A model generated the notes under the pieces. It was not told the DNA's origin, did not search any database, and saw only the letters and a list, made by a program, of their open reading frames with translations. A DNA stretch of 53,573 nucleotides from an uncultured Verrucomicrobiota bacterium (GTDB taxonomy: Bacteria > Verrucomicrobiota > Verrucomicrobiia > Chthoniobacterales > SZAS-18), in the NCBI GenBank assembly GCA_937859745.1, contig CALMAQ010000348.1, positions 1 through 53,573 on the forward strand. The letters run 5' to 3'. Of the stretch, positions 1-24,863 are shown piece by piece (position 1 is the stretch's first letter; each line of letters starts with the position of its first letter). Both the position numbers and the translations under genes were made by a program.

Positions 1-49
1 GATCGGTGACGTTGGGGGTTGGGATGCACGGGGTTTCGATGGTATTCAT
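1..49 (-). CDS. Possible 5' end of an unknown gene continuing off the window (MNTIETPCIPTPNVTD...)
   Basis: ATG at 49-47 on the minus strand, open to the window edge, same orientation as the upstream operon. Too short to identify. Confidence 0.3.
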   Translation of the reverse strand, partial: MNTIETPCIPTPNVTD

Positions 50-202
50 GGTTTGGCCGCCGCGCGGCGGCGATTGGTCTGAGTTCTCCTGTGGCTTGTG
101 GTCTGCGAAGGGGTCTCGCGCGGGCGTGATGCCCGACGCGTCCCTTTACTCCTTTTGATCGGAGCAACCGGACCAACCCGGAAAACCAAAGTACGAATTC
201 TT

Positions 203-3200
203 TCAGACCAACTTCACCGTGCCTGTCGGCGCTGCCGGGCAGATGAAAAAATGCGGGCACCGCGGGCATCGCACCGCGTCGATTTCCATAGGGAAATGCC
301 CGTCGAGAATGTTTTTGAGCACCGTTTCGAGCTTCTCACGCCGGTTGGCGAGTTTTTGTGCAGTGATCTGGATCGCACTCGTGGCTTCATCCGTGAGATG
401 GATCGCCTCGACCAAATAAGTCCCTGGGTAATGCTGCTCAGCCGCCAACACGTAAAGCGTGTACTCGATCCGATCGTACTCGCCGCTGCGCTGCTTGCCG
501 GTATGAACATGGCGCAGCACCACCGTGGCATCCTCTAATTCGGCCATCTCGTGAGGTTCGACGAGGATCTCGCCGTTGCGGAATTTTACCGCTAGCGACT
601 GAGTAAGTCTAAATTTCCGATCCGCTCCCCAATTGATCAACGTCGCGATTAGGCGGGACGCCAACGCTCGGTAGTCAGCGGCAAAAGCATGGGTAACTGG
701 TCCACGCTCTTGCCAAATCCGCTCGAATTCACGCTCGGCATCCTCTACGGAAACGTGGGCTTTGAGGCGTGTTCCATACAGCCACCGCATCAATTCATAC
801 AAGGAATCATGCGTGCGCGTAAAAGCCGTCTGCTGGCGTGCACCACCCAGATGCAAAACATGCGTGTAGAAGAAGCGCCTAGGGCATCCGTCGTAAGCTT
901 TGATGCGTCCATCGGTCAACAGCTGGCGCTGGTTCCAGTCCACCGTGATGAACGCCCGATCTCCTTGGCCTGAGGGTGCGGGGATACATGGCGGTAAGAG
1001 ATTTTCTGACAATGCTTGTGGCGGGAGCCATTTTAAAAAACTCGAAGGCGAGCGATTTCGCCCGTCCGATGTCTTGTTCGTTCGATATAGCCGCACGTGC
1101 CGTCGTGCCCTGGAGATCGCCACGAAAAACAAACATTCTTCTTCCACCGCGTGGGCGCGTTTTGCCTCGTCGCGTGGCAGCAATCCCTCCGTGTCGTCGA
1201 TCATGCCGTTTGGGGGCAGACACGGACGGTATCGATCGGAGGTCGGAAAACTTGATGTTGCCATTCCCGGCACGTGAACGGCATCGAATTCGAGTCCCTT
1301 GCTGCCGTGCACGGTCATCAGCCGAACCGCGTCCATGTGCAGGGCGGCAGCGGGCACTTGACGCAGATCGCGCTCCTCCGCGAGCAACACCATCTGTCGC
1401 ACCCTTTCGAGGGTTCGGTGAATCGGCGAACCCGAGCCTGCCACCGGCTGCTCTCTGACGAAGTTCAGAAACTGCCAGATGGCAATGCCCTTCATCCGAT
1501 CAGAGATTTGCTCGGAGCGCGCCAGGTCGGCAAAGGCATGCGTGTGATCGAGCAGGTAGGTCAGCAGGAATTCCCACGCAGTCGCGTGCGCCGATACCGT
1601 ACGGAGGTCAGCGGCCAACTGTCCTAAGGCCGCAACCGCTTTGGCGGAAAGATTGGGGGTGGACGCAAGCGAAGTGAGCTGCGTGGCAGCGGGATCTTTA
1701 GAATGGTGCAGTCGGTCGGCGAGCAGATACACGTCCTGCAAGCTGAAGTCGTACCGGGGCCAAGCTGCCAGCCGAACCAGCCCTTCGCCGAAGGGACTTA
1801 CGCTGAGGCTTAAAAGCGAGAGAAGATCACGAACTTCCTCCCGCTCAAAAAGGCTGCCGAGGTGCAAAACAGGAACGCCTCGTGCCTCCAGGGCCGATGC
1901 GATCTGATTGAGCCGGCCATTCGAGCGACAGAGGACGGCTTGGTCGCGCAACTTGATGCCATCCCCTTCCAGTTCGCGTATCGCGGCGGCGACACCCGCC
2001 GCCTCGTCGTCAAGGGAGTTGAATACTCTCGTCTCCATTCGACTCTCCGGCTTCTTCTCGTATGCCGTTAACTCCAAAGGAAAACTCGGATCGGACGCTC
2101 CCATGTGCGTAGCGAACTCGACAAAACTGTTTACGATAAGTTCCGAGGAACGATAGTTGACCGAGAGTTGCCCGCGTTGAGCACCGGGATAATCGGCGGG
2201 AAACTTCCGCATGTTGTGGGACGATGCGCCCCGGAATCGGTAGATGGATTGCCTTGCGTCGCCAACAACCCACAAATGGTCGCCCTGACCAGCGATGCTC
2301 CGCAGCAGTCTCGCGCTGGCGCGATTCACGTCTTGATATTCATCAACCAGCACGTGCCGGTGGCGAGCCCGAATGGTTTGGCAGACGCTTGCGTCCGTTT
2401 CGAGCAGAAGGGTCGGCCGCATGATCAGATCGCCGAAATCGACCGCTTCCCGTTCGCGCAGCGCGTGTTCGTACAGCGCGTACACGTGTGCGACTTCCAA
2501 ACATTTCTCGGCCGCCTCACGAGCATCCGCATCGCTGCCGGCTTCGGCCAGCATGGTTTGGGAAAGGATTTGGTAGCGATGATGATCTACCAGTTCATCC
2601 TTGGCGCGGGAAATCGCGCCGACGATATCACGTAAAACAATTGTGGGGTCCCACAGATTGCGGTAGTGAACGAGCGGCAGGGTCGGCAGGATTTCTTCCA
2701 GCACGCTGATAGCATCACTGCGATCAAAAAGGACGGGATTCGCCGGTAATCCAAGGCGATCATGGTAGCGCCGTACCAGATCGAGACCGAAAGCGTGAAA
2801 AGTGCCGATCCACAGCTTTTCGACGGAAGTTTGAGCAGCTCTCGAAAGCCGCTCAGAAATTTCCCCGGCGGCGCGGTTCGAAAACGTCAGCACCACGATT
2901 GTTGAAGGATCAACCCCTTGGCCGATAAGGAATTCTACCCGTTTGACTAACGTGCGAGTTTTTCCTGTCCCCGGACCTGCTTGAAGTTGAAAGGCTGATC
3001 CGAGATGGATGGAGGCGCGATCCTGTGAGGAGTCTGGCGCAAGAATGCCTGCGGGGATCGCCGCCGCCTCGTCGTTCTCCAGGGTGGGCAATTCCGGGAG
3101 CAACAGCGCATCGAGCAGTTGTTGGCGAACAACGTCTTTGGATAAACCCGTGCGCTCGGCGATACCGGAAGCGGACATCGCTTGATCGAGGTACAGAAAC

Positions 3201-3640
3201 CGCGCCCACGGCCGTGGTAACAGGAACTCGCGGGCGAACACGTTCGCTTGCAGTTCCTGGCGCTCGCGCACTCCGTAATCCTCGACCCGTTGCAAACCAA
3301 CAGGCGCGGCTTCGGTGGAACGGGAAACATCGATGTCCTCCGAGACGCAATCACAGGTCGCGCCGTGGAATTTCGCGTGACCAATTTCGTGCGCGGCCAG
3401 CATCGCGCGTTGCGCGTCGCTGCCAACATCCTCACAACAGATTAGCCCACTCTGGTCGTCGTATGAAGCACGTGCGCCCTTCAGCGCCGGGTCCGTTGGT
3501 GGCAACCAAGCGATTTCAAGGCCGAGTTTGCTGACGGCAGCTTCGATCAAGGCGCTCGGACGCCAAGGATCGATCCCATCGGCAACAAGTTCACCATGCA
3601 GCCGAGCGGCGATGTCACGTATCGGCTGGAAGGCGTCCAT
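203..3640 (-). CDS. Fusion of ImmA/IrrE-like metallopeptidase, UvrD/Rep SF1 helicase and C-terminal PD-(D/E)XK-like (AddB/Cas4-like 4-Cys) domain
   Basis: N-terminal AAHEIGH (HEXXH) followed by ELQANVFAREFLLP. Helicase motifs AGPGTGKT, GTFHAF, LVDEYQD, VGDARQSIYRFRGA, NYRS, MTVHGSKGLEF and FVAISRAR. C-terminal CPRRF...CPRCPHFFIC. Confidence 0.9.
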   Translation of the reverse strand: MDAFQPIRDIAARLHGELVADGIDPWRPSALIEAAVSKLGLEIAWLPPTDPALKGARASYDDQSGLICCEDVGSDAQRAMLAAHEIGHAKFHGATCDCVSEDIDVSRSTEAAPVGLQRVEDYGVRERQELQANVFAREFLLPRPWARFLYLDQAMSASGIAERTGLSKDVVRQQLLDALLLPELPTLENDEAAAIPAGILAPDSSQDRASIHLGSAFQLQAGPGTGKTRTLVKRVEFLIGQGVDPSTIVVLTFSNRAAGEISERLSRAAQTSVEKLWIGTFHAFGLDLVRRYHDRLGLPANPVLFDRSDAISVLEEILPTLPLVHYRNLWDPTIVLRDIVGAISRAKDELVDHHRYQILSQTMLAEAGSDADAREAAEKCLEVAHVYALYEHALREREAVDFGDLIMRPTLLLETDASVCQTIRARHRHVLVDEYQDVNRASARLLRSIAGQGDHLWVVGDARQSIYRFRGASSHNMRKFPADYPGAQRGQLSVNYRSSELIVNSFVEFATHMGASDPSFPLELTAYEKKPESRMETRVFNSLDDEAAGVAAAIRELEGDGIKLRDQAVLCRSNGRLNQIASALEARGVPVLHLGSLFEREEVRDLLSLLSLSVSPFGEGLVRLAAWPRYDFSLQDVYLLADRLHHSKDPAATQLTSLASTPNLSAKAVAALGQLAADLRTVSAHATAWEFLLTYLLDHTHAFADLARSEQISDRMKGIAIWQFLNFVREQPVAGSGSPIHRTLERVRQMVLLAEERDLRQVPAAALHMDAVRLMTVHGSKGLEFDAVHVPGMATSSFPTSDRYRPCLPPNGMIDDTEGLLPRDEAKRAHAVEEECLFFVAISRARRHVRLYRTNKTSDGRNRSPSSFLKWLPPQALSENLLPPCIPAPSGQGDRAFITVDWNQRQLLTDGRIKAYDGCPRRFFYTHVLHLGGARQQTAFTRTHDSLYELMRWLYGTRLKAHVSVEDAEREFERIWQERGPVTHAFAADYRALASRLIATLINWGADRKFRLTQSLAVKFRNGEILVEPHEMAELEDATVVLRHVHTGKQRSGEYDRIEYTLYVLAAEQHYPGTYLVEAIHLTDEATSAIQITAQKLANRREKLETVLKNILDGHFPMEIDAVRCPRCPHFFICPAAPTGTVKLV

Positions 3641-3650
3641 GGAACGGTCG

Positions 3651-4310
3651 TCATAGGCCGAGCAGATGTTCTTGCTGCTCCTTGGTCAGATTTGATGCGC
3701 GGACCGCATCGGCGAACGACTGTTTACCGGCCGCTTCCGGTTTCTGCTCGGCTTTGTAGTTTGCGCGAAGCGGGACTTGGGCGACTGCGGCAAAATGTGC
3801 TTTGAGGGTCTCTGGGGCGGTTTGCAAAAGGTCTGCAACATGCCTGATGAAACCCTCGCTGATTGTCTGTGCGTCGATCAATCTATCGCGCAGTCTTGTC
3901 ACGAATAGCGTACTCGCATTAAGTTGGGATCGAAAGACTTGCAATGCTTTTCTGTCGAGGTGCGCGAATGGATTTATGGCTGGAATGGCAGAACTTTCAG
4001 AGTGGGTTTGCGCCTCCATTTCTGCGCGCCTCGCGCGCAGCTGTTCGTCGAAACGAAGCAGAGCACTGGAAACCGAATGGCTTGTCTCCTGAGCTGACGG
4101 CCAACGTGCGTCGATTTCCGATGGAATGGCAGGTTCGGCGGCGTCGAGCGCTGTATGCACCGCGAACTCTCTAAGCGCAGCGGCGTGTTGTGGATAGCGC
4201 TCTAAAAAATCGTTTAGCAACGCCGCGTCAGGCTTCTCTTTGGCGAGAGAGAACTCGTGCAAAATTTCCTGGAGGGCGAGCTGCTGCCGTTGCACAGGTC
4301 TTGGCTTCAT
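3651..4310 (-). CDS. Hypothetical protein, middle gene of the sigma-like/helicase operon
   Basis: 219-aa ORF; ATGA overlap with the upstream gene's stop and a 10-bp gap to the helicase. Confidence 0.8.
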   Translation of the reverse strand: MKPRPVQRQQLALQEILHEFSLAKEKPDAALLNDFLERYPQHAAALREFAVHTALDAAEPAIPSEIDARWPSAQETSHSVSSALLRFDEQLRARRAEMEAQTHSESSAIPAINPFAHLDRKALQVFRSQLNASTLFVTRLRDRLIDAQTISEGFIRHVADLLQTAPETLKAHFAAVAQVPLRANYKAEQKPEAAGKQSFADAVRASNLTKEQQEHLLGL

Positions 4311-5101
4311 TTTTTCAACTGTTTGAGGGTGCTCAGCGCACGAGCCAGGCGATTTCTGATCGTGCGGCCCGAAACTCCGCAGATCGACGCCACGGTGCGT
4401 TTTGAGGGGTCTTCTGATTCGATCTCATATCCAAGGCGATAATGAAGGGTGACGGCGTGGCGTTCGTCCGCAGGTAACCTCTTGATCGCGTCGAACACCT
4501 CATCCCGGAAAGCAATTTCGCTCGGCGAGGCATTTTCGAGCCGATCCGATTCCACTAGGTTGGTGAGGGACTCGTCGTCGGAAAACGACTGGGTCTCCAG
4601 TTCCGATCCTTCCTCGGTATCCCCAGCGTAGCTCTGCAAGGGCCGAGTTCGACTGCTCTCGGCACGGACCCGGTCCACATAAAAAGCCGCGAATGCCTTG
4701 TTGAACCTGATCTCGTAGAAATCGAGCTTCGTAGCGTCGGGATTTGCCCAATTTTCTACAAACAGGCTCGCGAAGTCGGACAGGATCTCGGTGCGAAGAA
4801 GCGCGGCGTCGGGAAACGCGTCTTCGGCGACATGACGCTTCAAGGTAAATTCACAACGGTCCAAAAGCATCTTCAGCAGCGCCCGGTATCTGGATTCATC
4901 CTTCTCGCGTAACGCTTCGCGCACGAGATACACCAAACATTCCGACGGGAGATAACCGTCGGCCTTTGGATGTCGGACGGTCGCACGCGCGAGGATCGTC
5001 GCCAGACTTTGAGCTGAAACCACCGAGATAGCAGCTTCCACGTCGGAATCACGGCGGTATTTCTTGCCTTTTTGAGTGCTTTTACGAAGGGGCGTGACCA
5101 T
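4307..5101 (-). CDS. Sigma70-family (ECF-like) factor or region-4 HTH protein
   Basis: C-terminus AIKRLPADERHAVTLHY...VASICGVSGRTIRNRLARALSTLK is typical of sigma70 region 4. Confidence 0.75.
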   Translation of the reverse strand: MVTPLRKSTQKGKKYRRDSDVEAAISVVSAQSLATILARATVRHPKADGYLPSECLVYLVREALREKDESRYRALLKMLLDRCEFTLKRHVAEDAFPDAALLRTEILSDFASLFVENWANPDATKLDFYEIRFNKAFAAFYVDRVRAESSRTRPLQSYAGDTEEGSELETQSFSDDESLTNLVESDRLENASPSEIAFRDEVFDAIKRLPADERHAVTLHYRLGYEIESEDPSKRTVASICGVSGRTIRNRLARALSTLKQLKK

Positions 5102-5246
5102 TTAGGCACTGGTAGATAGGCCGACCAAAATTATTGCATCCGTACTTCTTATATTAAACACCTACTTGGGTGACGATTGTCAAGAAAAGCGCAAACCGAG
5201 AACGATCACCATTTGTCTTACTCCGTCGTTTTAGAACATACCTTTT

Positions 5247-5276
5247 TAAGGTTGATAAAAAGCATTATCTCCCTTA
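5247..5276. promoter_or_regulatory. Putative tyrosine-recombinase core site (imperfect 12-bp arms, 6-bp spacer)
   Basis: TAAGGTTGATAA-AAAGCA-TTATCTCCCTTA, lying 11 bp before the recombinase ATG. Confidence 0.55.
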
Positions 5277-5287
5277 GAAGAGGGGAG

Positions 5288-6268
5288 ATGAACGCGAAAG
5301 ATGGCGAATTGATCGTGGTAGCCGCCGGCGGGCGCGAACTCGCCGACGCAAGCTTTTACCAGCTCAACGACGTGCCGCCCGAGCTGGAATGGTTCGCCAA
5401 CATCGCCAACGCGCACACCCGCCGGGCGTACCGCAACGATGTCGCCGGGTTCATGGCATTCTTCGGGATCAAAGACGCTCGGCAGTTCCGGGAGGTCACG
5501 CGCTCCCACTTACTCGCTTGGCGTAAGCACTTGGAACGGTCCGGCAGCGGCCCCGCGACGATCCGGCGCAAGCTCTCGGCGCTGGCTTCGCTCTTCGATC
5601 ACCTCTGCGAGGTCAACGCGGTGACACACAACCCGGTGCGTGGCGTCAAACGGCCGCGGGCTGAGACCGGCGAAGGCAAAACCCCGGCGATTGCCGATGG
5701 ACAGGCGCGTAAGCTCCTCGACGCACCGCCTGAAGGCACGCTGAAGGGCAAACGCGACCGCGCGATTTTGGCGGTGCTTTTTTTCCACGGTCTGCGGCGC
5801 GAGGAACTGTGCAAGCTGCGTGTCAAAGACGTGGAACAACGCCAGGGCGTGGCGCACCTGCGCGTCCACGGCAAGGGCGGCAAGATTCGCTTTGTGCCAG
5901 CGCACCCGGCGGCGCTGGCGCGGATTTCGGATTACCTGCAAGCCTGCGGTCACGGCGACGATGCCGCCGGGGCGTTGTTCCGGCCCGTGAAAAACCCGCG
6001 CGAGCGGGGAAAGCTCGACCGGGCGCTTACCCCCGGCAAGGTCGATGAGTGCGTGGTGCGGTATTATTCCCGGCGGCTGGGGATCAATGCGGCTGGCTTC
6101 GGCCCCCATGTGGCCCGGGCGACGGCGGCCACGCACGCCCTGGATCGAGGCGCAGACATCGCCAAGGTGCAGGAATGGCTGGGACACGCCAGCATCGCCA
6201 CTACCCGCATCTATGATCGTCGGCGGTCACGTCCGGACGAAAGTCCGACTTTTCGGATGAACTACTGA
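5288..6268 (+). CDS. Tyrosine recombinase/integrase (resolvase-type)
   Basis: RDRAILAVLFFHGLRREE (R), GKGGK, HVARAT (HxxR), LGHASIATTRIYD (H, Y). Start placed at ATG 5288 after a purine-rich RBS. Confidence 0.92.
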   Translation: MNAKDGELIVVAAGGRELADASFYQLNDVPPELEWFANIANAHTRRAYRNDVAGFMAFFGIKDARQFREVTRSHLLAWRKHLERSGSGPATIRRKLSALASLFDHLCEVNAVTHNPVRGVKRPRAETGEGKTPAIADGQARKLLDAPPEGTLKGKRDRAILAVLFFHGLRREELCKLRVKDVEQRQGVAHLRVHGKGGKIRFVPAHPAALARISDYLQACGHGDDAAGALFRPVKNPRERGKLDRALTPGKVDECVVRYYSRRLGINAAGFGPHVARATAATHALDRGADIAKVQEWLGHASIATTRIYDRRRSRPDESPTFRMNY

Positions 6269-6303
6269 GCACGACGGGCCTCCCTTCCGCGGGGAGACTT
6301 TCT

Positions 6304-6585
6304 TTACATCCACAAGGGTTCCAAGGCTGGATCGTCCAGCAAAGCCAGCCGCCGCTCGGGGGCGATCCTGGCGAGCCGGTGGATGGCCACCTTCGCCTCG
6401 GGCAACCTGCCGAGCGCCACGAACGCTCGCGCGCGTTGGTGCAAAACGGCGGGATCATGTTGGCAGGCCGGTTCCACGGTCGTCAGTTCTTCCAAGGCGG
6501 CCTGCGCCGCGCCGAGAGCGAGCCAGCCCTCGGCGGCTTGGACGGCGCGCTGCACTCGAAAGTCACGTTGGCTTAATCGTTCCAT
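6304..6585 (-). CDS. Short TPR-like protein
   Basis: Helical repeat pattern AAEGWLALG...ALEEL...RARAFVALGRLPEAK...ALLDDPALEPLW; I recall similar short TPR proteins being common in Verrucomicrobia. Confidence 0.6.
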   Translation of the reverse strand: MERLSQRDFRVQRAVQAAEGWLALGAAQAALEELTTVEPACQHDPAVLHQRARAFVALGRLPEAKVAIHRLARIAPERRLALLDDPALEPLWM

Positions 6586-7526: not shown

Positions 7527-7763
7527 ATGCGTGGCAGCGTTGCGTCCCTTCATTCGGCTCCTTACAAACGGTTTCTGCGGGAAATCAAGGCGATGCGCAT
7601 GGAGGCGCGGCTGACTCAGGAACAGCTTGCCAAGAAGCTGCGGCAATCGCAAACCTACGTCTCCAAGAGCGAGAGCGGCGAGCGGCGGCTCGATCTGGTC
7701 GAATGGCTGGCCTTCTGTAAAGCGTGCCGTCAGGACCCGAAAGAATTTCTCGACCGGCTTTGA
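7527..7763 (+). CDS. XRE-family HTH regulator
   Basis: RMEARLTQEQLAKKLRQSQTYVSKSESGERRLDLVE. Confidence 0.88.
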   Translation: MRGSVASLHSAPYKRFLREIKAMRMEARLTQEQLAKKLRQSQTYVSKSESGERRLDLVEWLAFCKACRQDPKEFLDRL

Positions 7764-7905
7764 ACGCTTTGTCACTCCGAACCGCCGCCGTGCATCGTGA
7801 TTGCGAGATAAACGCATGCCATGTGCCCGGGATTGACGCCAAGGCGAATGTCCCAGAACTAGGACCCAGCAGCAAGCCTTTTGGGACGACGATCCGGTCC
7901 CAGAA

Positions 7906-8202
7906 ATGGCACATCGCTCCACTGGGTCGGCTCCTCTTCGCAACGTGCTTGCCAGCCGTATCCGGCGGGCGCGTGAGAAGTTGGGATGGTCGCAGTCCGA
8001 TCTGGCGCGCGAGCTGCAACTGGTGGGCTGGGACGCCGGGCGCACGCTGATTACGAAGATCGAACTGCGCGAGCGGTGCGTGACGGATTACGAACTGATC
8101 GTGCTGGCGCGGGTGCTTTCGGTTGGCCTGGATGACCTGACGCGCGGTGCCTACAAGGAAGCCCTGCGCCTGGCGCAGCCCGGCGGCGGGTCCACGCCGT
8201 AG
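7906..8202 (+). CDS. XRE-family HTH regulator
   Basis: RIRRAREKLGWSQSDLARELQLVGWDAGRTLITKIELRERCVTDYELIVLARVL. Confidence 0.85.
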   Translation: MAHRSTGSAPLRNVLASRIRRAREKLGWSQSDLARELQLVGWDAGRTLITKIELRERCVTDYELIVLARVLSVGLDDLTRGAYKEALRLAQPGGGSTP

Positions 8203-8215
8203 CGGCTTGGCCTTT

Positions 8216-8515
8216 CTAGTGAAAATCACGAGAGGAAAGTTTCGTGGACAGCAGACAGGCGGGCCGCTCGATCCGCGTGGCGCGCACCAGCAGCGGACCC
8301 TGACCGGTTTGCGCGATATCGGTGGTCTGGAGGAATTTCTCTTGGGTGGCCGTTAGACGTACCCGCTCGAAGAGGTCGGGCGGCACCACCGCGTTCGCCA
8401 CGCCGGACCCATCTTCGAGCGAGATGAACACGAGTTCTTTGGCCGTGCCGGGGCGCTGCCGACAGATGACCACCCTGGCAACCGTGATCTCCTCGCCGTG
8501 GACGGCGTTGCTGAC
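8216..8515 (-). pseudogene. dnaE2: C-terminal OB-fold remnant of error-prone DNA polymerase DnaE2
   Basis: HGEEITVARVVICRQRPGTAKELVFISLEDGSGVANAVV and a terminal SRDFH are characteristic of the DnaE2 C-terminus; the rest of the gene is absent. Confidence 0.75.
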
Positions 8516-9136: not shown

Positions 9137-9775
9137 TTACCGCCCGCAGTCTTTCGCTTTTTCCCTCGCTTTCGTCTGCTTTAGCACCTTTGCCGGAACG
9201 GCCGATGTCGCCGTCTTGAAGCTGGCAATGGCTCCGTCCAAGCGGCCTGCTTGAGCCTCGCGCGAGATGGCCACCATCGTTTCACGCGAGATCGACTGGA
9301 AATCGATTTTATATCCCGCCTGTCTGGCGATGTCGCCGAGCATCACACGTTGCGTGCGGCCGTTGCCTTCTCTGAAAGGGTGGAGAGCGTTGATTTCTCC
9401 AAAGTAGTAAGCCAGCCGATCACAAAGGCTATCCTGCGGAAGGGAACGGAGCATGTTCTCCTGACGGAGTTGATCGAAAATACGCTTGCCCTCCGAGGCA
9501 AGGAATTCGTGACGGCAGAACAGGCTCGCGCCTTTGCTCATGGAGACGGTTCGCAATTCTCCCGCCCAAGAATACACGTCACGGAAGATGTGACGGTGGA
9601 TATCGCGTAGATGATCCAGATCAAACTTCCCCGCGACGGGCCTGCGTTGGAGCTGATCGAGCCGGAGAACGGTGATCCGCGCTTCTGCCTTCGACAGGTC
9701 GGCCTGGGCGCGGAAGCCGAACGAATTCTGGAGAACGTCCGACTGCGAATAGCAGTAGGGATCTTGTTCGCTCAC
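9137..9775 (-). CDS. Fic-domain toxin (FicT/VbhT-like adenylyltransferase)
   Basis: Canonical HPFREGNGRTQR motif; N-terminal DPYCY. Confidence 0.93.
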   Translation of the reverse strand: MSEQDPYCYSQSDVLQNSFGFRAQADLSKAEARITVLRLDQLQRRPVAGKFDLDHLRDIHRHIFRDVYSWAGELRTVSMSKGASLFCRHEFLASEGKRIFDQLRQENMLRSLPQDSLCDRLAYYFGEINALHPFREGNGRTQRVMLGDIARQAGYKIDFQSISRETMVAISREAQAGRLDGAIASFKTATSAVPAKVLKQTKAREKAKDCGR

Positions 9776-9993
9776 GCGGAACCGTTTCTCAGCTTCTCAA
9801 GCGTATTCTCAATCGCTTTTTCAAGCGTGATCTCTCCACGAATCCAGGCGTCGGCCTCCGCGTCATCCTCCGCCGTCAGAAAGCCATCCAGACCTTCCAA
9901 GCGCAAGCTGTGCCGTGAATCCTCGTGGATCGCCCGCCTCGACCGCATCTCTTCTTCCGAGATCGGGGGAAGGGGTCGGTCGGGCGTGCTCAC
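9772..9993 (-). CDS. FicA/VbhA-like antitoxin
   Basis: 73 aa with the inhibitory SLRLEG motif ((S/T)xxxE(G/N)) and GEITLE; 4-bp overlap with the fic gene. Confidence 0.85.
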   Translation of the reverse strand: MSTPDRPLPPISEEEMRSRRAIHEDSRHSLRLEGLDGFLTAEDDAEADAWIRGEITLEKAIENTLEKLRNGSA

Positions 9994-10042: not shown

Positions 10043-11026
10043 CTATTTTCGCATCGCGGCAACGGCTCGCAGGGCCGCGTTTTTGACAGAGTTTCCACCG
10101 CTGGCAGCAAGCGAAGTACCTCCCGTAGCTACGGCTGCGATGCCCTGTGCTGTGAGACTAGCTGCCCCCATTAATGTGCCCATCGCGCTACCGGGTGCGC
10201 CGATGTGATTATGGGAAACGAGACCAGCTACCATGGCGGGCACTTTGTCTACGAGCATGGCCACAATCACAAGCAGCGCCAGAGTGGAAAGGGCGTTGTC
10301 AATTTGCCCCATGTCTGCATTCATGGCGTTCGTGACCAACTGAATCGCTGTGTTCATCAAAAGATTCAGCGTGAACAGCCTCAAGCCAGCCGCGATCACG
10401 GCTTTGTAGTAGCTGATCGCCATCTCGGAGGTGTACTTCGATCCGCCGAAACCCAATACGAAGATTCCGGCATACACCAGTGTCAACGCGGTGATTCCAG
10501 CAATGATGATGGTCACGACGAGGTAGCAGCCAAGCACGACGCCGATAATTGCTATCAACGACCATAAGAGCGCCATCTTGGGGTCCCAAAGGCTCACGTT
10601 GCTAACCGCTTGGTGGCTGAAAGCGAGAGCCAACTGCAATACCGTGTTGCCTTGGCCAGCCCCGCCCCCACCTCCAACGGTGGCTCCTGCCTGTTGAAGG
10701 CTGGTGACTATCGAAGCGGCTATTGTCGTACCGTTCGTCAGCAGCCAGTAGAAAAATCCTGTTGTGATGATGAACCGGACCAATTCCGCAAAAAAATCCA
10801 TCATGTCAGCTTTTCGCAAAGCGAGCATTGCGCCCGTCCAAACGAGGGAAATCGCTGCCAGCGACCAGAACAATCGTTCTGCGTAAGCCTCGATTTGGGT
10901 TCCGAACCCTTTGATCGCGTTTGCAAATTGACTTGTTACCTGCGAACCGATGTCCGTTCCCTGCCCGTAAGCCATCGATCCAAAGCAGAGCAAAACCAGG
11001 ATTGTCAGCGGGAAGGCTTTCCGCAT
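10043..11026 (-). CDS. trbL: P-type conjugative transfer protein TrbL (VirB6-like)
   Basis: AERLFWSLAAISLVWTG...DFFAELVRF...FFYWLLTNG...GFGGSKYTSEMAISYYK; position after trbJ and trbK. Confidence 0.9.
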   Translation of the reverse strand: MRKAFPLTILVLLCFGSMAYGQGTDIGSQVTSQFANAIKGFGTQIEAYAERLFWSLAAISLVWTGAMLALRKADMMDFFAELVRFIITTGFFYWLLTNGTTIAASIVTSLQQAGATVGGGGGAGQGNTVLQLALAFSHQAVSNVSLWDPKMALLWSLIAIIGVVLGCYLVVTIIIAGITALTLVYAGIFVLGFGGSKYTSEMAISYYKAVIAAGLRLFTLNLLMNTAIQLVTNAMNADMGQIDNALSTLALLVIVAMLVDKVPAMVAGLVSHNHIGAPGSAMGTLMGAASLTAQGIAAVATGGTSLAASGGNSVKNAALRAVAAMRK

Positions 11027-11235
11027 CAGTGCTGGTCCTCGGGCTTCGGTGTGGGCGATGCCGGCGTCCCCATGGACAAGTCTAGGGGGACTGGCGTGTA
11101 GTTCCCGGCATTCGCTTGGGTTCCCTGCTTTGTTTTCTCACGTTCAGCCTGCAACTTCGCTTTCTCGGAGTTGTCGCAAGCTGCCGTAGTGACGATGCAG
11201 AAAACTGCTAAAGAGATGAGGAGATAGCGGTTCAT
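11026..11235 (-). CDS. trbK: Entry-exclusion lipoprotein TrbK-like
   Basis: Small ORF with a signal peptide and lipobox-like TAAC, between trbJ and trbL. Confidence 0.65.
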   Translation of the reverse strand: MNRYLLISLAVFCIVTTAACDNSEKAKLQAEREKTKQGTQANAGNYTPVPLDLSMGTPASPTPKPEDQH

Positions 11236-11251
11236 TTGCGGCGCATTCAAG

Positions 11252-12013
11252 TTACTGCATTGAGAAGTTTAGTGGGGCCGCGGTGTAGGCACCGGCGTTG
11301 ACACGCATACCGTTTTGCGTTGCAGCGGCCTCTGCGGCTTCCTTATTCGCCAGACTCGCATTGCGTGCGGTGGTCGCATCGGCGAGGTGGACAAGCAGCC
11401 CACGCAATTGCTGCAACTGCGCGACCTGCGCGCTGGCGAGCTGCATCCCGGCCTGCAACGCCTGGAGTTCACCGGAAGCTCCCTGCGCGCTGGCGGTCAT
11501 CTTGCTCAAGACGGCGGCATCGTGGGCCATGTTCGCGTTCTGGGCGGACAGGTTCTGCACGACGGCCCCGTAGGAGGCGATTTCCGTGGCTGAACCATTG
11601 GCCATGCTCTGGCGGTAAGCCACCAGCGTGGGCGGATGCTGATTCCACTGTGCCTGGGTCTGAAACTGCGTGAGGAAACTGTTGTAGGCCCCGGTGGTGC
11701 CGTTGACCGTGCCGACCAACTGGTTGAGCGATGTGCTGGCGTCCGCCCACTTGTAAGTCCCAAGCGCCTGTAAGTTCTGGAGCTGCGCTTGGTATTGCTG
11801 GAGCTGGGTCTCGTACTGCTGCACCTGCTTGGCGTACTGGGTGACCTGCTCGGCGTAGCTCATCACGTGCGAGCCTGCCGTGATGGTGGCCTGCACAGTG
11901 TTGAGCGGGTCGGTGACGACGTACTGCGCCCGCGCCTGCTGAGCGTGGGAAAGCCAGCCCGCGCCGAGGAGGAATGCGGTGGCCAAGGAATGTGTTCTGC
12001 GATGGGTTTTCAT
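11252..12013 (-). CDS. trbJ: TrbJ (VirB5-like)
   Basis: Signal peptide, Gln-rich coiled coil (QLQQYQAQLQN) and GELQALQAGMQLASAQVAQLQQLRGLL. Confidence 0.85.
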   Translation of the reverse strand: MKTHRRTHSLATAFLLGAGWLSHAQQARAQYVVTDPLNTVQATITAGSHVMSYAEQVTQYAKQVQQYETQLQQYQAQLQNLQALGTYKWADASTSLNQLVGTVNGTTGAYNSFLTQFQTQAQWNQHPPTLVAYRQSMANGSATEIASYGAVVQNLSAQNANMAHDAAVLSKMTASAQGASGELQALQAGMQLASAQVAQLQQLRGLLVHLADATTARNASLANKEAAEAAATQNGMRVNAGAYTAAPLNFSMQ

Positions 12014-12020
12014 TTTGGAG

Positions 12021-12033
12021 TTTAGCGGCTAAA
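12021..12033. promoter_or_regulatory. KorB-type operator (O_B)
   Basis: TTTAGCGGCTAAA, an exact match to the IncP-1 O_B consensus. Confidence 0.85.
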
Positions 12034-12045
12034 CCAGCGTGGAAT

Positions 12046-13323
12046 TCACTTTGCCAAGCGGTATTGAAAGTCCTGGTACGGGGTCATCTCGAAGTCTTTG
12101 ACCACCAAAATATTGAACCGGTAACCCGGCCGGATTTTGATGGTGGGCGCGACGTTGAGATTTTTCTGGATCATCTGGGCGATGACGTTGCCAAACACGT
12201 TGCCAAGCGATTGGCTCAGGTTTTGTTGCAGCCCGTTGTTGCTGTAGGTGGAGGCGCTCAGGTTCGCGTTGGCCGCCGGCACGCTCTGGGCCAACTGCTG
12301 GCTGTACGACACCCCGCCCACGACCGCGGAAAGCAGGATGGCGGAGCCGAACGTGCGCAGGTAGTGGTTGTCCACCTGGTCAGCGAATCCGGCGTACCCT
12401 CCCCCGTCGGTGCCGGGTTGCGAGCCCACGTCCAGCGCGCGACCGTCGGGAAAAATGATCCGCTGCCAGGCGATGAACACCCGGTCCTGTCCGTAGCCCA
12501 CGTTGGCCGAGTACGCGCCGACCAGGCGGCTGCCCTGGGGCAAGAGCAGGTACTGGCCGGTCGGCGTGTCGAACACGTTCTGGGACACCTGGGCGATGAT
12601 CGTGCCGGGCAGCTCGGAATTGACGCCGGAGATGAGGACGCCCGGAATGACGCTGCCGGTGCGCAGGATGAAGCGCGAGGGGTTCTCGATGCGCGCGTTG
12701 GTCTGCCAACGGTGCGGACTGACCGCGTCGAACTGGCTCAAACCCGTAAGGTCGGCCTGGGGCGTGGCCGCGCCCAGTTCACCGGCGGTTTTGTCGTCCC
12801 GGTCTTTGGCTAGAATTCCCCGCAGCAACGCGAGCTTGCGCGCCTCCGGGTCGTTCTCCCCTGTCCCGGCGGCCGGCGTCGTCTTGGGCAGCGCGATGCC
12901 CTCGACGTTGGGCTTGGCGGAGAGCGCGGTCTGGAGCGCCTGCATCCGCGCGTTGTTGACGGGGTCGGCGGGCGGCTCGGGCGGGACCGGCGGCGGCAGC
13001 ATCGCCGGCACGACCGGCGCGGACTTCGGCACCGGCGTTGGCTCAACCGGAGCCTGGGTCCAAGCGAGCTGCTTGGGAATGATGCTGTCCGCCTGTTTGG
13101 CGGCGCTCGTGTGCTGCTCGGTATTCTGGGCGATCTGGCGCTTGCTGCGCGAGTACATGACCCCGATCACTACGAACAGGAAGAGCACCATCAAAACGAA
13201 GATGATGACCATCGGCGTGTTGTTGATGCGCCGGGTGCCGACCTGCGAGCGGCCAGCGCCGGAGGGCGAGTTCTCGGGCGACAGATCCGGGTCCGAGGCC
13301 GGAGGGGGAGCGTTATTTTCCAT
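12046..13323 (-). CDS. trbI: TrbI (VirB10)
   Basis: TM segment and Pro-rich linker, then LRTGSVIPGVLISGVNSELPG...GYAGFADQVDNHY...PTIKIRPGYRFNI. Confidence 0.95.
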   Translation of the reverse strand: MENNAPPPASDPDLSPENSPSGAGRSQVGTRRINNTPMVIIFVLMVLFLFVVIGVMYSRSKRQIAQNTEQHTSAAKQADSIIPKQLAWTQAPVEPTPVPKSAPVVPAMLPPPVPPEPPADPVNNARMQALQTALSAKPNVEGIALPKTTPAAGTGENDPEARKLALLRGILAKDRDDKTAGELGAATPQADLTGLSQFDAVSPHRWQTNARIENPSRFILRTGSVIPGVLISGVNSELPGTIIAQVSQNVFDTPTGQYLLLPQGSRLVGAYSANVGYGQDRVFIAWQRIIFPDGRALDVGSQPGTDGGGYAGFADQVDNHYLRTFGSAILLSAVVGGVSYSQQLAQSVPAANANLSASTYSNNGLQQNLSQSLGNVFGNVIAQMIQKNLNVAPTIKIRPGYRFNILVVKDFEMTPYQDFQYRLAK

Positions 13324-14578
13324 CGCGGGCTTTGGAAGACTTGGTCTGCGTGGTGGTGGTCGTCGTGCGGGTCGTCACCGGCTTCGGCGCGACGACCTTC
13401 TTGGTCAGCTTCACCTCGTCGCGCCCGATGACCATGACGGCGCGGTCGATCACCGAATCCACGATGTAGCGGTTGTGCTGGACCCGGTAATTGACGATCA
13501 CCTTGTCGTCGCCCCACAAGCCCTTGCCACGGCGCAGCACGAGCAGGCTCGGAGCCTCCGTCTGGCTCATGGTGGGCGGCATCTGGATGTAGGTCTTCAC
13601 GCCGTCCGTGTAGGCGTAGAGCGGCTGCCAGGGCGCGCTGCCGTCGATGCGGTAGGCAACCGTGGGCACCGCCGGTCCCGGCACGGCGGGCTTGGGCAAT
13701 TTCGCCTGCGACTCGGCGCGAGTGCGGGCGGCCGTTTTCTGGAGCGCCGCCAACTCGGCGTCGCGCTTCTGCTGCAACGCCGCCACCTCCGGGTCTTCGG
13801 GGTAGGTGAACGTCACGTAGTGCATGAACCGGTCGAAACTCGACTGCAAGAGCAGGTGGTAGGTGCGTTTGGTCGTCGTCACGACGAGCGAGGTTTTGAG
13901 TCCCTCGTCCAGGGGTTTGATGATGAGGTGCGCGCGCTGCAACTCACCCTCCTGGGAATTGGTGACGGCGATCACCCAGCGGGCCGTGTCGCCGACGTTG
14001 ACCGAGGTGACGGCCTCGCCGGGCTGCAACTCCACGTCGGTCAATTCGAGCACCGCCGCGGTGAGCGTGGGCAGCGCGGAATTAAACGTGAGCACGACCG
14101 AGCCGTTGACTTTGGACTGACTCTGGAAATCTGCGCTCTGCGCCGCCCAATCGTCCGTCATTTTGACACCGACCTGTTCCTGTGGCGTGAGCGTGCGCTC
14201 GCTTTCCACGCGAGCCTGCTTGGTCACAAGATCGACCCTCCGTTCCGGGGAAAGCGGCACATCAACAGCGCGGAACGCCGGGACCGGATAAATCTGCCCC
14301 TGGGGCGGCAGGCCGCCGCCGATGACCTGCGTCTGCGCGCCCGCGCCCGCCACGCCGGGCGTCGGGGTAGGATCGGGCTGCGGAAGGTCTGCGGGGACGG
14401 GAGGCGTCGGGACCGGCACTTGCACCGTGGCGGCGGTGCTCCCCGGCGGCAGCAGCAAAGGGGGCGGTGTTTGTGCGGACTGGTCCGCCTCCTGCGCGCA
14501 GCCGGTCGGGCGGGGTGCGATCACGGCGAGCGCCAGCGCCCCAGCGAACAACGTGGATTTCATGGTGGTGGCCTTCAC
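13313..14578 (-). CDS. trbG: TrbG (VirB9)
   Basis: TDVELQPGEAVTSVNVGDTARW, TSLVVTTTKRTYHL, DGVKTYIQMP and VNYRVQHNRYIVD. Confidence 0.93.
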   Translation of the reverse strand: MKATTMKSTLFAGALALAVIAPRPTGCAQEADQSAQTPPPLLLPPGSTAATVQVPVPTPPVPADLPQPDPTPTPGVAGAGAQTQVIGGGLPPQGQIYPVPAFRAVDVPLSPERRVDLVTKQARVESERTLTPQEQVGVKMTDDWAAQSADFQSQSKVNGSVVLTFNSALPTLTAAVLELTDVELQPGEAVTSVNVGDTARWVIAVTNSQEGELQRAHLIIKPLDEGLKTSLVVTTTKRTYHLLLQSSFDRFMHYVTFTYPEDPEVAALQQKRDAELAALQKTAARTRAESQAKLPKPAVPGPAVPTVAYRIDGSAPWQPLYAYTDGVKTYIQMPPTMSQTEAPSLLVLRRGKGLWGDDKVIVNYRVQHNRYIVDSVIDRAVMVIGRDEVKLTKKVVAPKPVTTRTTTTTTQTKSSKARDGK

Positions 14579-14581
14579 GTC

Positions 14582-15265
14582 CTAGAAACCGATTTTGCTC
14601 CAGTTAAAATCCTTCACGTACAGACCGATGGGATTACGCTGAATGTCCTGTTCGCTGGTGGCCGCCGTCGCGGGCACGAGGTAGGTCGTGACTAACGCGC
14701 GCATGTTGGTGACGCTCTCCGGGTGGCCGTCGCGGCTGACGACCGTCTCGGTCCAGTCCACCTGCCAGGAGTTCTGCGACTGCGGGATGACGGCGTTGAT
14801 GGACGCGCTCACCAGCACCTTGGTCGCGCGGTTAAACGGGTTGTTTTCCTTCGTGCCGTTGAACCATTCGTTCATCTTGGCGGTGGCCGGATCGGAGTTG
14901 GCCAAGAGCGCGTACACGTCCCGGATGGAATTGGCCTGGAGCTGCTGGTCGGGCGTGACGAGCCGGGCCTTGGTGATGAAGGTCGCCAGCTCCGCTTTGA
15001 CGACCGCCGTCAGGTTCGCCGCATCAATGACCGACGCCTGCCGCACCGCGGCGACCTGGCCCAGCTTATCGACCTCCACGATGTACGGGACGAATCGGCT
15101 CTGTTTGGCGACGGACACCATGCCGACCACGGCGATGCCCGCGACGCAAAGGCTGCCAATGCCGACCGCCTGCCAGATTTTCGTGGCGCGCACGACCTGG
15201 CCGACGTGGTCGTTCCACGAACGCCGGGCGTTGAAATAAGGACTGACAGGTTCCTGAGTTTTCAT
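14582..15265 (-). CDS. trbF: TrbF (VirB8-like)
   Basis: SPYFNARRSWND...FVPYIVEVDKLG...WQVDWTE...RNPIGLYVKDFNWS. Start set at ATG 15265. Confidence 0.93.
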   Translation of the reverse strand: MKTQEPVSPYFNARRSWNDHVGQVVRATKIWQAVGIGSLCVAGIAVVGMVSVAKQSRFVPYIVEVDKLGQVAAVRQASVIDAANLTAVVKAELATFITKARLVTPDQQLQANSIRDVYALLANSDPATAKMNEWFNGTKENNPFNRATKVLVSASINAVIPQSQNSWQVDWTETVVSRDGHPESVTNMRALVTTYLVPATAATSEQDIQRNPIGLYVKDFNWSKIGF

Positions 15266-15294
15266 TGAGAGAAAGGGAAAGAGAGCGAAGACGG

Positions 15295-17727: not shown

Positions 17728-17744
17728 TTTTTTGAGCGCAACGG

Positions 17745-18041
17745 CTACGGCTGCTTGAGGGACTTGAAGGGGGTGGACTGCGCCGGGTAAAACGCTTTGT
17801 AGCGGCGGTGGCGCAGGTAAACGTGGCGAAGCTGCGGGTCGTTTTTCGCCATGAGGCGCAGGAGGTAGAGCGCCACCGTCCAGAGCACGACGCCGAACAC
17901 GCAGGCGAACCATTCCTGCGCCGCGAAGATGAGAGCGACGGCCAACAGTGCCGTGAACATCACCAGTTCCCGATCCCCGCCCATGAACAGGTTGGGCCGG
18001 TTGATGGCGCTATGGATCGGGATCATGCGGCGGTCTTCCAT
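17745..18041 (-). CDS. trbD: TrbD (VirB3)
   Basis: IPIHSAINRPNLFMGGDRELV...MAKNDPQLRHVYLRH. Confidence 0.93.
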   Translation of the reverse strand: MEDRRMIPIHSAINRPNLFMGGDRELVMFTALLAVALIFAAQEWFACVFGVVLWTVALYLLRLMAKNDPQLRHVYLRHRRYKAFYPAQSTPFKSLKQP

Positions 18042-18091
18042 AAAGACGGTTGTTTTCGTTTAGAATCCTCCCCTACCCCTCCGGCGCTGTT

Positions 18092-18481
18092 TCACACGGC
18101 GAATGCGCCGTTGACCCACGGCGAGCCATGCATAGGCGGCAGCGGGCTGTAGACGACGGCACCCGTGCCAAAGAGGCCTGACATCATGGTGTTCGCCCCG
18201 ACCAGGAGCGCCATGACGAGCACGATGAAAACCAGCGTGCGCAGGAACGCGTTGAGTTCGCCGCCGAAAATCAGAACGCCACCGGCCCCGACGATGCCGA
18301 TGAGCGACACGCTAAACGCCACGGGTCCCGTCAAGGATTCCTGAAGCTTGGTGAGCCACGCCTCGTACGGCAGCCCGCCGCCAGCCGCGGCTGAGGCATG
18401 GGCGTAGCTCGCGAAGGCGAAAGTAAATCCAACGATGAGGAGAACTTGGAGTTTTGTATTGCTGAATTTTGAAAGTTTCAC
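18092..18481 (-). CDS. trbC: TrbC pilin precursor (VirB2)
   Basis: [23 protein letters not shown]...[16 protein letters not shown]. Start uncertain (GTG 18481 or TTG 18520). Confidence 0.92.
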
Positions 18482-18586
18482 GGGCGCGATGATTCCGTCC
18501 CACGAGAAATTTGTCAACAAAAGATCCGGGGGTAGCGCAGAAAATCAGCAATAAAGTGCTGCCGCCGCCGATGCTGGGCGGGACGG

Positions 18587-18599
18587 TTTAGCCGCTAAA
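18587..18599. promoter_or_regulatory. KorB-type operator (O_B)
   Basis: TTTAGCCGCTAAA between trbB and trbC. Confidence 0.85.
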
Positions 18600-18607
18600 C
18601 TCAATTT

Positions 18608-21768: not shown

Positions 21769-21789
21769 ACGCTCTCGGGCACTCCGGCG

Positions 21790-21978
21790 TTACGGCGTCT
21801 CCACGGCGCTTTCCTTGGCGTCTTCTTCGCTCAAGGCATCTTCGCGGAAGGCTCCCGCCTCGTCGGCTTCGTCCAAGGTGAATTCCGCCTCGAACCCCGG
21901 CGTGGCGGCATCGAGAAATTTCGCTTCGATGATCTCGATGTCGGCGGGATCGATGTCCTTGGTTTTCGGTGCGCTCAT
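21790..21978 (-). CDS. traD: TraD-like small acidic protein
   Basis: [29 protein letters not shown] resembles IncP TraD; directly upstream of traC. Confidence 0.7.
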
Positions 21979-22153
21979 GGTGGTACTTCTCGGTTGGTGT
22001 GCAACTGAACTCGGGCGGGAAGTAACCAGCAATTTGGATACCTCCTGTGCCCGCCGGGTGTCGTCACACGGCGGCGCGATGTTCGAGTTTTGGCACTTTC
22101 TCAACTGGAAAACACAAAGTTTGGCAAGACAAATTTGATCGGCGGTTGCCTGG

Positions 22154-22166
22154 TTTAGCCGCTAAA
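22154..22166. promoter_or_regulatory. KorB-type operator (O_B)
   Basis: TTTAGCCGCTAAA between traF and traD. Confidence 0.85.
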
Positions 22167-22232
22167 CTGCGACGTTGGTGAGCATGTAAACGGTTGATTC
22201 CGCGATGGACGGGAGGATCGGGCGGCGTCGGT

Positions 22233-24861: not shown

Positions 24862-24863
24862 GG

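Follow-up and report, generated by a model that had tools for sequence, protein, structure and literature searches.

A sigma factor, a predicted anti-sigma partner and a peptidase-helicase fusion as a putative proteolytic switch beside bacterial ubiquitin-like operons

The described systems closest to the locus analysed here are the CapH/CapP pair and the CalpL-CalpT-CalpS switch. The locus is a three-gene cassette on the minus strand of a 53,573-nucleotide stretch of DNA from an uncultured Verrucomicrobiota bacterium (contig CALMAQ010000348.1, hereafter C348 and, at its full length, the window; part of a 401-contig, 4.13-Mb assembly). It encodes a sigma factor, a 219-aa partner and a large fusion of peptidase, helicase and nuclease fold. 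The cassette looks like a regulator, not a weapon. Taken together, the comparisons suggest that the three genes probably constitute a proteolytic transcription switch, in which: a DNA-activated protease would cut an anti-sigma factor; and the freed sigma factor would transcribe the operon downstream.

CapH and CapP sit beside operons of the cyclic-oligonucleotide-based anti-phage signalling system (CBASS) and of the Bil and Bub types, and are activated by single-stranded DNA (Lau et al., 10.1101/2022.04.27.489752); the cassette likewise sits beside Bil or Bub operons. The likeness extends to the proteins: an HExxH peptidase of the M78 family with a third-ligand Glu, a conserved Cys after the motif, and a partner with an XRE-type fold. 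CapH is cut at F82/R83 (Lau et al.), an aromatic-basic pair like the candidate Y185/K186 site of the cassette partner. The architectures differ. CapP is a stand-alone protein of peptidase, helix-turn-helix and GAF domains, whereas the cassette peptidase is fused to a helicase and an iron-sulfur (Fe-S) fold. CapH consists of an N-terminal XRE domain and a C-terminal dimerisation domain, whereas the XRE-like fold of the cassette partner is internal and accompanied by an extra, predicted sigma-binding domain. Finally, CapH/CapP are described as divergent from their target, which they control by derepression; the cassette is co-oriented with its target and is predicted to activate it through a dedicated sigma factor.

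The cassette also resembles CalpL-CalpT-CalpS and Craspase-Csx30-CASP-sigma, three-part immune switches of a protease with an anti-sigma protein and a sigma factor like those of the extracytoplasmic function (ECF) group (10.1101/2024.05.08.593097). In the account given there, the cut in CalpT leaves a sigma-bound part that needs further degradation, and the same is proposed for the cassette partner. Those switches use a SAVED-Lon or TPR-CHAT protease and belong to type III CRISPR, whereas the cassette has an M78 peptidase, a predicted helicase sensor and its target operon next door; a Pfam scan found no CRISPR gene among 45 open reading frames (ORFs) of the window. The cassette belongs to neither group; its proposed action is that of a CalpL-CalpT-CalpS switch assembled from parts of the CapH/CapP type. 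Immune operons, Bil and Bub among them, have other neighbouring controllers that respond to DNA damage, namely CapK with CapS, and CapW/BrxR (PMC13373217); these are described as kinase/STAS or WYL repressors, whereas the cassette would act through a sigma factor. It would thus add a fourth family to these controllers, the first to rely on a dedicated sigma factor.

Literature searches found no published description of the cassette; such neighbours may be listed in the supplements to the Corbett preprints and to Millman et al. 2022. The closest hint in print is a set of 24 CBASS systems in which capH and capP stand beside a predicted sigma70-family factor (Lau et al.). The word 'helicase' is absent from the main text of Lau et al. 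and of the other related-system papers searched for it. In most relatives the cassette is followed by type I BilABCD, whose anti-phage action is proven (Hör et al., 10.1101/2023.09.04.556158) and which would be the output of the cassette, not part of it. Hör et al. expressed it with arabinose; the words 'upstream', 'helicase' and 'native' do not occur in the available text of that paper, in which native control of Bil is not addressed.

The genes occupy positions 4307-5101 (264 aa), 3651-4310 (219 aa) and 203-3640 (1145 aa). The first two overlap by 4 bp, and 10 bp separate the second from the third. The first-pass annotation, made from the letters of the window, had given exactly this layout and had also described the genes as lower in GC than the transfer backbone. 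The measured values agree with it: GC is 57.4% in the cassette locus, 63.4% in the transfer region and 65.3% in the genome, and GC at third codon positions is 0.56-0.64 in the locus genes against 0.73-0.87 in six flanking genes. Back to back with the cassette lies a XerC-like tyrosine recombinase gene (5177-6268), with a trb/traG/traI transfer region beyond. PADLOC, one of the checks the annotation had called for, has no model that matches the two small genes or the neighbours of the helicase and assigns the fusion to generic helicase models only; capP is absent from the 25 best PADLOC matches for the locus.

The best 80 matches define 57 loci at 47-65% identity, a comparison set that leans to close relatives. 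Sigma gene, partner gene and fusion gene follow in the same order in 53 of them; three of the four exceptions are cut by contig ends and the last (L051) lacks the 5' part. The earlier proposal of a three-gene unit, for which failure to co-occur in other genomes had been named as a possible refutation, is thus borne out in these loci, and chance does not account for the arrangement. The downstream, possibly anti-phage genes that it had envisaged prove to be ubiquitin-like operons of the Bil/Bub kind. A bilA gene follows the cassette in 55/57 loci and at least three of the four bil genes in 51/57, with one representative of each bil gene matching PADLOC BilA-D. Another locus (L057) carries a type I Bub operon instead, with the full BubAB-BubCD-BubE set. 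A Bil or Bub operon therefore lies directly downstream in 56/57 loci, and the cassette is co-oriented with it, here and in related loci. Upstream neighbours vary between loci while the downstream operon is constant.

The distribution is sporadic. The cassette is present in 1 of 40 relatives and on five plasmid records; a sample of 400 other genomes from the phylum did not yield it. A wider reading of six divergent fusion loci revealed the partner in five of them; the sigma factor was evident in four and showed weak whole-length likeness in two.

This neighbourhood bears on whether the cassette could be a stand-alone abortive defence, with the freed sigma factor or the fusion as the toxic agent and the ubiquitin-like operon as a mere neighbour in a defence island. 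Free CalpS arrests growth of E. coli (10.1101/2024.05.08.593097), the cassette is part of a defence island carried by a conjugative element, and no ubiquitin-like gene was detected after it in L009, where the fusion is broken, or in L098. However, both loci adjoin insertion-sequence-type disruptions, and the operon of the 56 loci stands directly behind a promoter-like site. The lack of a PADLOC match for the small genes, the generic helicase assignment of the fusion and its degenerate nuclease motif also speak against such a role, which is very unlikely.

The site in question is a non-palindromic motif, TTCCG(G/C)-N16-CGAT(C/T)A, found in related loci both after the fusion stop codon and before the sigma gene. 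In the window it occurs as:

156-183, minus strand: promoter-like site TTCCGG-N16-CGATCA, just past the fusion stop codon and 106 nt before the next gene; score 29.9
4483-4510, minus strand: second promoter-like site, inside the sigma gene and about 170 nt before the 219-aa gene; score 28.2

The strict motif is present in 44/55 regions upstream of bilA and 43/53 regions before the sigma gene. When a matrix was trained solely on the bilA side (32 sites), 51/53 sigma-upstream regions scored at least 14, against 2/570 control windows. The gap between the two boxes is 15-17 nt, and the upstream position is typical of -35/-10 boxes. Paired sites of one locus share lineage-specific box variants, with 16.4 of 19 positions identical as compared to 14.2 after shuffling (reached in 0 of 5000 shuffles), and the spacers are less alike (4.7/12 versus 3.5); kinship inflates both box and spacer identity. 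This comparison used 56 distinct pairs: 47 in which each site passes a score of 12, together with 10 divergent loci placed by hand, minus one duplicate. In the whole assembly, 36 sites score at least 14; the two best are those in the window, and the next best scores 20.8. The internal site of the sigma gene falls on partly conserved codons, which favour the motif. Of the related sigma genes, 7/53 score at least 14 there; one of these loci (L057) also lacks the upstream site. Taken in aggregate, these features predict, from sequence, that the motif is a dedicated sigma-type promoter, usually an autoregulatory one.

The motif also occurs before other genes. It precedes a pair encoding a Mre11-like phosphoesterase and an AAA_27 (Rad50-like) protein upstream of the sigma gene in L026, L030, L031, L036 and L040 (position ~3460), a caspase-domain gene in L008 and L042 (~6700) and, in weaker form, an AddB/AddA-like pair in L008 and L027 (16522). 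Elsewhere on the window contig, no motif site scoring at least 14 was found. This last result bears on control of the kind exerted by ImmA/ImmR, in which the switch would induce the tyrosine recombinase and the transfer genes after DNA damage. ImmA controls excision of ICEBs1 (Lau et al., 10.1101/2022.04.27.489752), and the back-to-back placement of the cassette with the recombinase and trb/tra region would suit such a role. With no further site on the contig, and with upstream neighbours that change from locus to locus before a constant downstream operon, control of the conjugative element was rejected and is hardly credible.

The protein proposed to read this promoter is the first gene product of the cassette:

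4307-5101, minus strand: ECF-type sigma factor, 264 aa, with predicted sigma2 at about aa 52-152, sigma4 at aa 193-264 and a family-specific N-terminal extension

Its sequence matches Pfam Sigma70_r4_2 (E 1.5e-7) and TIGR02937 (1.3e-8). No Sigma70_r2 match was found by Pfam, and sigma2 is seen by structure only. In the structure model (predicted local distance difference test, pLDDT, 88.7), the top Foldseek rows are all ECF sigma factors, aligned over 196-243 columns at probabilities of 0.99-1.00 and E values of 0.004-0.02, and several ECF chains align across aa 52-264. The sigma4 region superimposes on sigmaE region 4 with Z 9.6 and a root-mean-square deviation (rmsd) of 1.4 over 65 aa. The protein thus models as a full ECF sigma factor, with sigma2 and sigma4 and without sigma3. 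The first-pass annotation had called it a sigma70-r4 protein; sigma4 stands by sequence, and the model adds sigma2. No match to the sigma factor was found in phage records. L111 has, upstream of its cassette (3358-4741), an additional tandem of one sigma-like and one partner-like gene.

The second gene product had been left as an unknown, taken as a non-XRE partner of the peptidase and as half of a possible sigma/anti-sigma pair. Its features are:

3651-4310, minus strand: predicted anti-sigma/XRE hybrid, 219 aa, from model, complex prediction and fold searches
4017-4274, minus strand: predicted sigma-binding domain, aa 13-98, a three-helix bundle, a flexible linker and a fourth helix, from the model and the predicted interface
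3786-3980, minus strand: degenerate XRE/lambda-repressor-like helix-turn-helix, aa 111-175, from structure comparison
3738-3758, minus strand: linker motif Y185-K-A-E-Q-K-P191, candidate recognition or cut site, from conservation

The family has 1431 representatives at E of 0.001 or below. The 219-aa protein has no meaningful Pfam match, and Pfam on 39 representatives gives no consistent domain (one of them, P0275, is an unrelated repeat protein); a search of PDB sequences with the family gave nothing useful and no anti-sigma match. The model contains helices at 13-23, 29-38, 40-58 and 78-105, a compact domain at 111-175 and a short C-terminal hairpin; Foldseek against the PDB returned nothing at E of 0.001 or below.

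Modelling of the complex, as the first-pass annotation had proposed, supports a sigma/anti-sigma pair. The predicted complex with the sigma factor scores 0.80, and the best of three controls 0.00; the mark applied is reached by 116/157 solved pairs and 2/215 mismatched pairs, a calibration that is only rough since the run used its own alignments. At least 95% of contacts are shared between runs, and the partner pLDDT is at least 74. Class I anti-sigma domains of the RseA/ChrR type consist of a three-helix bundle and a fourth helix, which contact sigma4 and sigma2. Here, partner aa 13-98 lie against both sigma2 and sigma4, and this region is predicted to have the class I layout.

The compact domain behind it aligns in VIA-align with XRE domains at Z 4.5-6.1, the best folds being mostly XRE repressors. 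Individual comparisons include the CapH N-terminal domain (7t5u; Z 4.8, rmsd 2.6, 60 aa), DdrO (6rnz; Z 4.8) and ImmR (7t8i; Z 4.5), and an Atlas structure match for a homologue (P0130) is to PF13560 (HTH_31). Profile comparison with the two XRE proteins of the window failed (probability 0.5 and 0.1). Because sequence and profile comparisons are negative, the XRE call is a structural one. It places the XRE-like fold internally, behind a predicted sigma-binding domain of 100 aa, so the earlier idea of a departure from the usual XRE partner does not stand: the protein has a two-domain anatomy that includes such a fold.

C-terminal to this fold is the linker motif. In 56 aligned partners, six of them without known context, K/R186, A/S187, K/R190 and P191 are present in 56/56 and an aromatic residue or His at 185 in 54/56; the strict form occurs in 104/132 full-length representatives. 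It may be where the fusion peptidase recognises or cuts the partner.

An XRE-like fold near the CapH, DdrO and ImmR domains invites comparison with CapH-type repression, in which the 219-aa protein would bind the motif as its operator, the fusion would cut this partner and the sigma-like protein would be only a co-factor. Pairs of CapH/CapP type do fill the same slot before the same operon elsewhere, and the 24 CBASS systems noted above combine capH and capP with a sigma factor. This arrangement nonetheless sits badly with the motif, which is bipartite and non-palindromic with a 15-17-nt gap at a -35/-10-like position, and with a sigma factor that models with both of its promoter-binding domains. 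The partner N-domain is predicted to wrap sigma2 and sigma4, and the cassette genes are co-oriented with their target while capH/capP are divergent. CapH-like repression is thus quite unlikely.

The proposed protease is the third gene product:

203-3640, minus strand: M78 peptidase-UvrD helicase-Fe-S nuclease-fold fusion, 1145 aa, by Pfam and family alignment
3116-3478, minus strand: IrrE/ImmA/CapP-type zinc peptidase with H84, E85, H88 and E129 (PF06114); C98 is a candidate cysteine switch
1001-3028, minus strand: superfamily 1A (SF1A; UvrD/PcrA-like) helicase, retaining intact motifs Q, I, Ia, Ib, II, III, IV, IVa, V and VI
236-907, minus strand: AddB/Cas4-like fold with four invariant Cys, nuclease likely inactive (PF12705)

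The fusion belongs to a large family of about 1140 aa. Pfam assigns Peptidase_M78 to aa 55-175 (E 4.5e-9), UvrD to aa 205-485 (1e-63) with UvrD_C, and PDDEXK_1 to aa 912-1135 (E 1.9e-8). It finds no GAF domain; the helicase starts at aa 205 instead. A search of PDB sequences gave nothing useful for the peptidase domain or nuclease fold. Motif counts were made on 49 full-length ORFs among the 57 loci, with eight broken or truncated copies left out. The zinc ligands and catalytic residue positions H84, E85, H88 and E129 are kept in 49/49, with the peptidase motif reading HEIGH. Walker A (GPGTGKT) and DE(Y/F)QD (here DEYQD) are likewise invariant, and the other SF1A motifs nearly so. The intact HEXXH peptidase, complete UvrD helicase and four-Cys tail reported by the first-pass annotation are therefore all recovered. 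C98, kept in 48/49, lies 14 residues past the first His; the cysteine switch of CapP, C113, lies 17 residues after H96 (Lau et al., 10.1101/2022.04.27.489752).

In the tail, C919, C1125, C1128 and C1134 are invariant in 49/49 and form a four-Cys Fe-S staple. Nucleases of the RecB/AddB/Cas4 group carry a catalytic D..D-Y-K motif. At the corresponding position this fusion has HVH and the family RVR (R1044 in 43/49, R1046 in 45/49), in a register taken from a low-probability alignment (4%) to DYKTG of an AddB-like ORF. Because DYK is replaced by HVH/RVR, the tail is likely a DNA-binding Fe-S fold that is inactive as a nuclease; an active nuclease was rejected on the degenerate catalytic residues. 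The UvrD core and AddB-like four-Cys fold also resemble Gabija GajB and AddAB. Gabija was rejected: no GajA lies next to the helicase, the helicase matches are generic and nuclease residues are missing.

If the cassette is a proteolytic switch, the sequence of events likely involves: sequestration of the sigma factor; activation of the peptidase by DNA; cleavage of the partner; and transcription from the dedicated promoter. At rest, the 219-aa partner would hold the ECF sigma factor inactive. The first step would be engagement of the helicase with single-stranded DNA or with DNA ends arising from damage, restriction or phage replication, and the likely inactive Fe-S nuclease fold may serve as a DNA-binding or threading module. 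By analogy with CapP, IrrE and ImmA, this engagement could lift the C98 cysteine switch of the peptidase, whose substrate would be the XRE-bearing partner. Next, the partner would be cut at or near Y185/K186, a position suggested by the clade that lacks the fusion, described below. As a cut near 185 would leave the sigma-binding domain whole, a further step is invoked: as in CalpT, the cut may expose a degron or break an oligomer, and the sigma factor would be freed by further degradation or lost oligomerisation. Finally, the freed sigma factor would transcribe the ubiquitin-like operon and its own cassette from the dedicated promoter. In this genome, a Bub-like operon would replace type I Bil, the usual output, and the site inside the sigma gene, not one in front of it, would carry the feedback.

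The requirement for the fusion can be examined from the output side. A search for BilA in 797 scored genomes of one order and one family, with five genomes unscored, gave 20 loci, of which two are the search centres and some may repeat loci among the 57. In the other 18 type I Bil loci, the fusion is directly upstream in nine, sigma factor and partner without the fusion in seven, and neither in two. The motif, too, is missing from the two loci without cassette genes, one of which carries a divergent XRE + HExxH pair. The peptidase part of the fusion is missing from 7/7 of the fusion-less genomes, with positive controls detected in 3/3. Because these seven genomes, which form a clade, keep the sigma factor, the partner and the promoter, the fusion is not obligatory. 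All seven have IetAS (AAA ATPase + subtilase) downstream, in pieces in L102. Their loci (L100-L106) run from sigma and anti-sigma genes through BilABCD and a 250-aa unknown gene to IetAS, and several repeat the promoter-like site before bilA. IetS as a replacement protease in this clade is speculation. In the fusion-less partners, K/R186 is present in 0/7 as compared to 56/56 in the others; all seven have lost the linker motif and still have RDR and SF. As the seven form one clade, this loss counts as a single event.

The same clade could be taken to mean that the sigma factor, anti-sigma factor and promoter regulate, that the fusion is an output acting on phage DNA or another protein, and that another cue or protease frees the sigma factor. 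The seven genomes retain sigma gene, partner, motif and BilABCD without the fusion, each with IetAS downstream; the fusion gene itself lies behind a motif site; and the predicted interface excludes the candidate cut site. Against this, the M78 peptidases that Lau et al. describe as studied so far cut XRE partners, and the cassette partner has an XRE-like fold. The linker motif, furthermore, was lost together with the fusion when RDR and SF were kept, and IetA-like genes occur in only two other loci among those examined. The fusion as an output is thus unlikely.

Several observations weigh against the switch as proposed. In this locus no site precedes the sigma gene (best score 3.2), and 7/18 Bil loci keep sigma factor, partner and motif without the fusion. 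These seven genomes are a single clade (support 0.96), so that the loss of the linker motif is one event. The 57 loci are best-scoring matches that include close kin. No anti-sigma factor is among the top 50 folds for partner aa 13-98; sigma/anti-sigma complexes have already been solved, so the predicted complex may pass through likeness to them; and the scores for the XRE fold are low. Release would take a further step, because the sigma-binding domain is spared by a cut at 185/186, and cleavage, its trigger, release and transcription are inferred steps. Protection against phage by Bub operons, finally, is not established according to PMC13373217.

The output operon of this genome crosses a contig boundary. 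The fusion ends 202 nt from the end of the window, where one further feature is found:

1-49, minus strand: first 16 codons of a multi-ubiquitin gene; the operon continues on contig C63 (L058:118-2690)

The first 165 bases of the window match the start of C63 at 146/165 positions. A 16,988-nt contig from sequencing run X1, possibly the source of this DNA, covers window 1-6400 and C63 5-3000 in register, and contigs of runs X2 and X3 (two other studies, about 95% alike) also bridge the join. The contig-end overlap (window 1-165, L058:1-166) has 19 mismatches, and the run contigs carry other letters near both ends, consistent with assembly-end errors. An exact-pattern metagenome scan for the C348/C63 junction gave no match.

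The C63 operon encodes a ubiquitin-like protein (Ubl; 247 aa, Multi_ubiq), an E2-like protein (131 aa) and a JAB-E1 (ThiF) fusion, which matches Citrobacter BubCD (E 1.6e-22) with the crossover-loop Tyr aligned. This JAB-E1 fusion with its Tyr is shared with type I Bub, in which Ye et al. (10.1101/2024.11.21.623953) describe a Ubl-E2 fusion, a DUF6527 gene and an SxH motif in E2. Here, in contrast, Ubl and E2 are separate genes, E2 carries SRRS, and the DUF6527 gene (BubE) is missing; the next gene encodes a restriction enzyme on the opposite strand. The Ubl ends in DDNS and not in Gly, as do 7/7 homologues shown. PDB sequence searches gave nothing useful for Ubl or E2. The C63 operon is, by sequence, a Bub-like variant. 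A same-genus genome (G413) has the Bil version downstream; this locus probably duplicates one of the 57 and was not counted twice.

The same Ubl-E2-JAB/E1 operon recurs in at least 15 metagenome loci; in these 15, cassette genes are absent and the Ubl gene is not directly preceded by a site. Seven of the 15 include upstream DNA, with XRE + M78 pairs in three, an M78 gene in one, a ribbon-helix-helix gene in two and nothing annotated in one. The motif travels with the sigma factor, not with the output operon. In L066 and L077 the small ribbon-helix-helix gene is divergent before the Bub-like operon, and L074 has a small gene too, possibly another controller; a gene for an unknown protein of about 210 aa is also divergent there in L074 and L077.

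A broader proposal is put forward tentatively: that the cassette could be the main native controller of anti-phage ubiquitination by type I Bil, with a helicase sensor that unlocks the protease, a cut of the anti-sigma/XRE hybrid at the F/Y-K motif and a sigma factor of its own that serves a small regulon within the island, behind whose promoter outputs, and even the protease (IetAS in one clade), would be swappable. If so, that regulon would comprise Bil or Bub, joined in some loci by genes of Mre11-Rad50-like, caspase or AddAB-like kind. The cassette, with or without the fusion, is upstream of 16/18 type I Bil loci found without regard to it. Because the promoter is precise, the sigma-binding surface predicted and a cut site proposed, native control of Bil is directly testable. 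A helicase-gated protease with an orthogonal sigma factor and promoter could also serve as a reporter of DNA damage or infection.

The region upstream of the cassette (5102-5290) is AT-rich and shared with the divergent XerC-like recombinase gene; the sigma gene has there neither the family promoter nor a clear ribosome-binding site. The run X3 contig has the same sigma/recombinase arrangement up to 5223. A TTGACA with a 19-nt gap at 5183 was seen and not relied on, and a scan for sigma70 promoters and terminators was at chance level (2 found versus 1.8 expected; 9 versus 8.0).

The cassette rides on a conjugative element at 10043-26704, which comprises an IncP-like trb cluster, an ArdC/Toprim fusion, TraG and a relaxase. 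This region is flanked by a Fic toxin gene with a small upstream partner (9137-9993) and by an AbiEi/AbiEii type IV toxin-antitoxin pair (28974-30619). Between recombinase and Fic gene, positions 7527-8473 hold two small XRE genes and an OB-fold fragment like the end of a DNA polymerase III alpha-like gene. On C63, beyond the Bub-like operon (L058:2716-12002), lie a BsuBI/PstI-type restriction-modification pair, a patatin gene and a type II CBASS with a SMODS cyclase, E2-E1, JAB and a SAVED-endonuclease effector.

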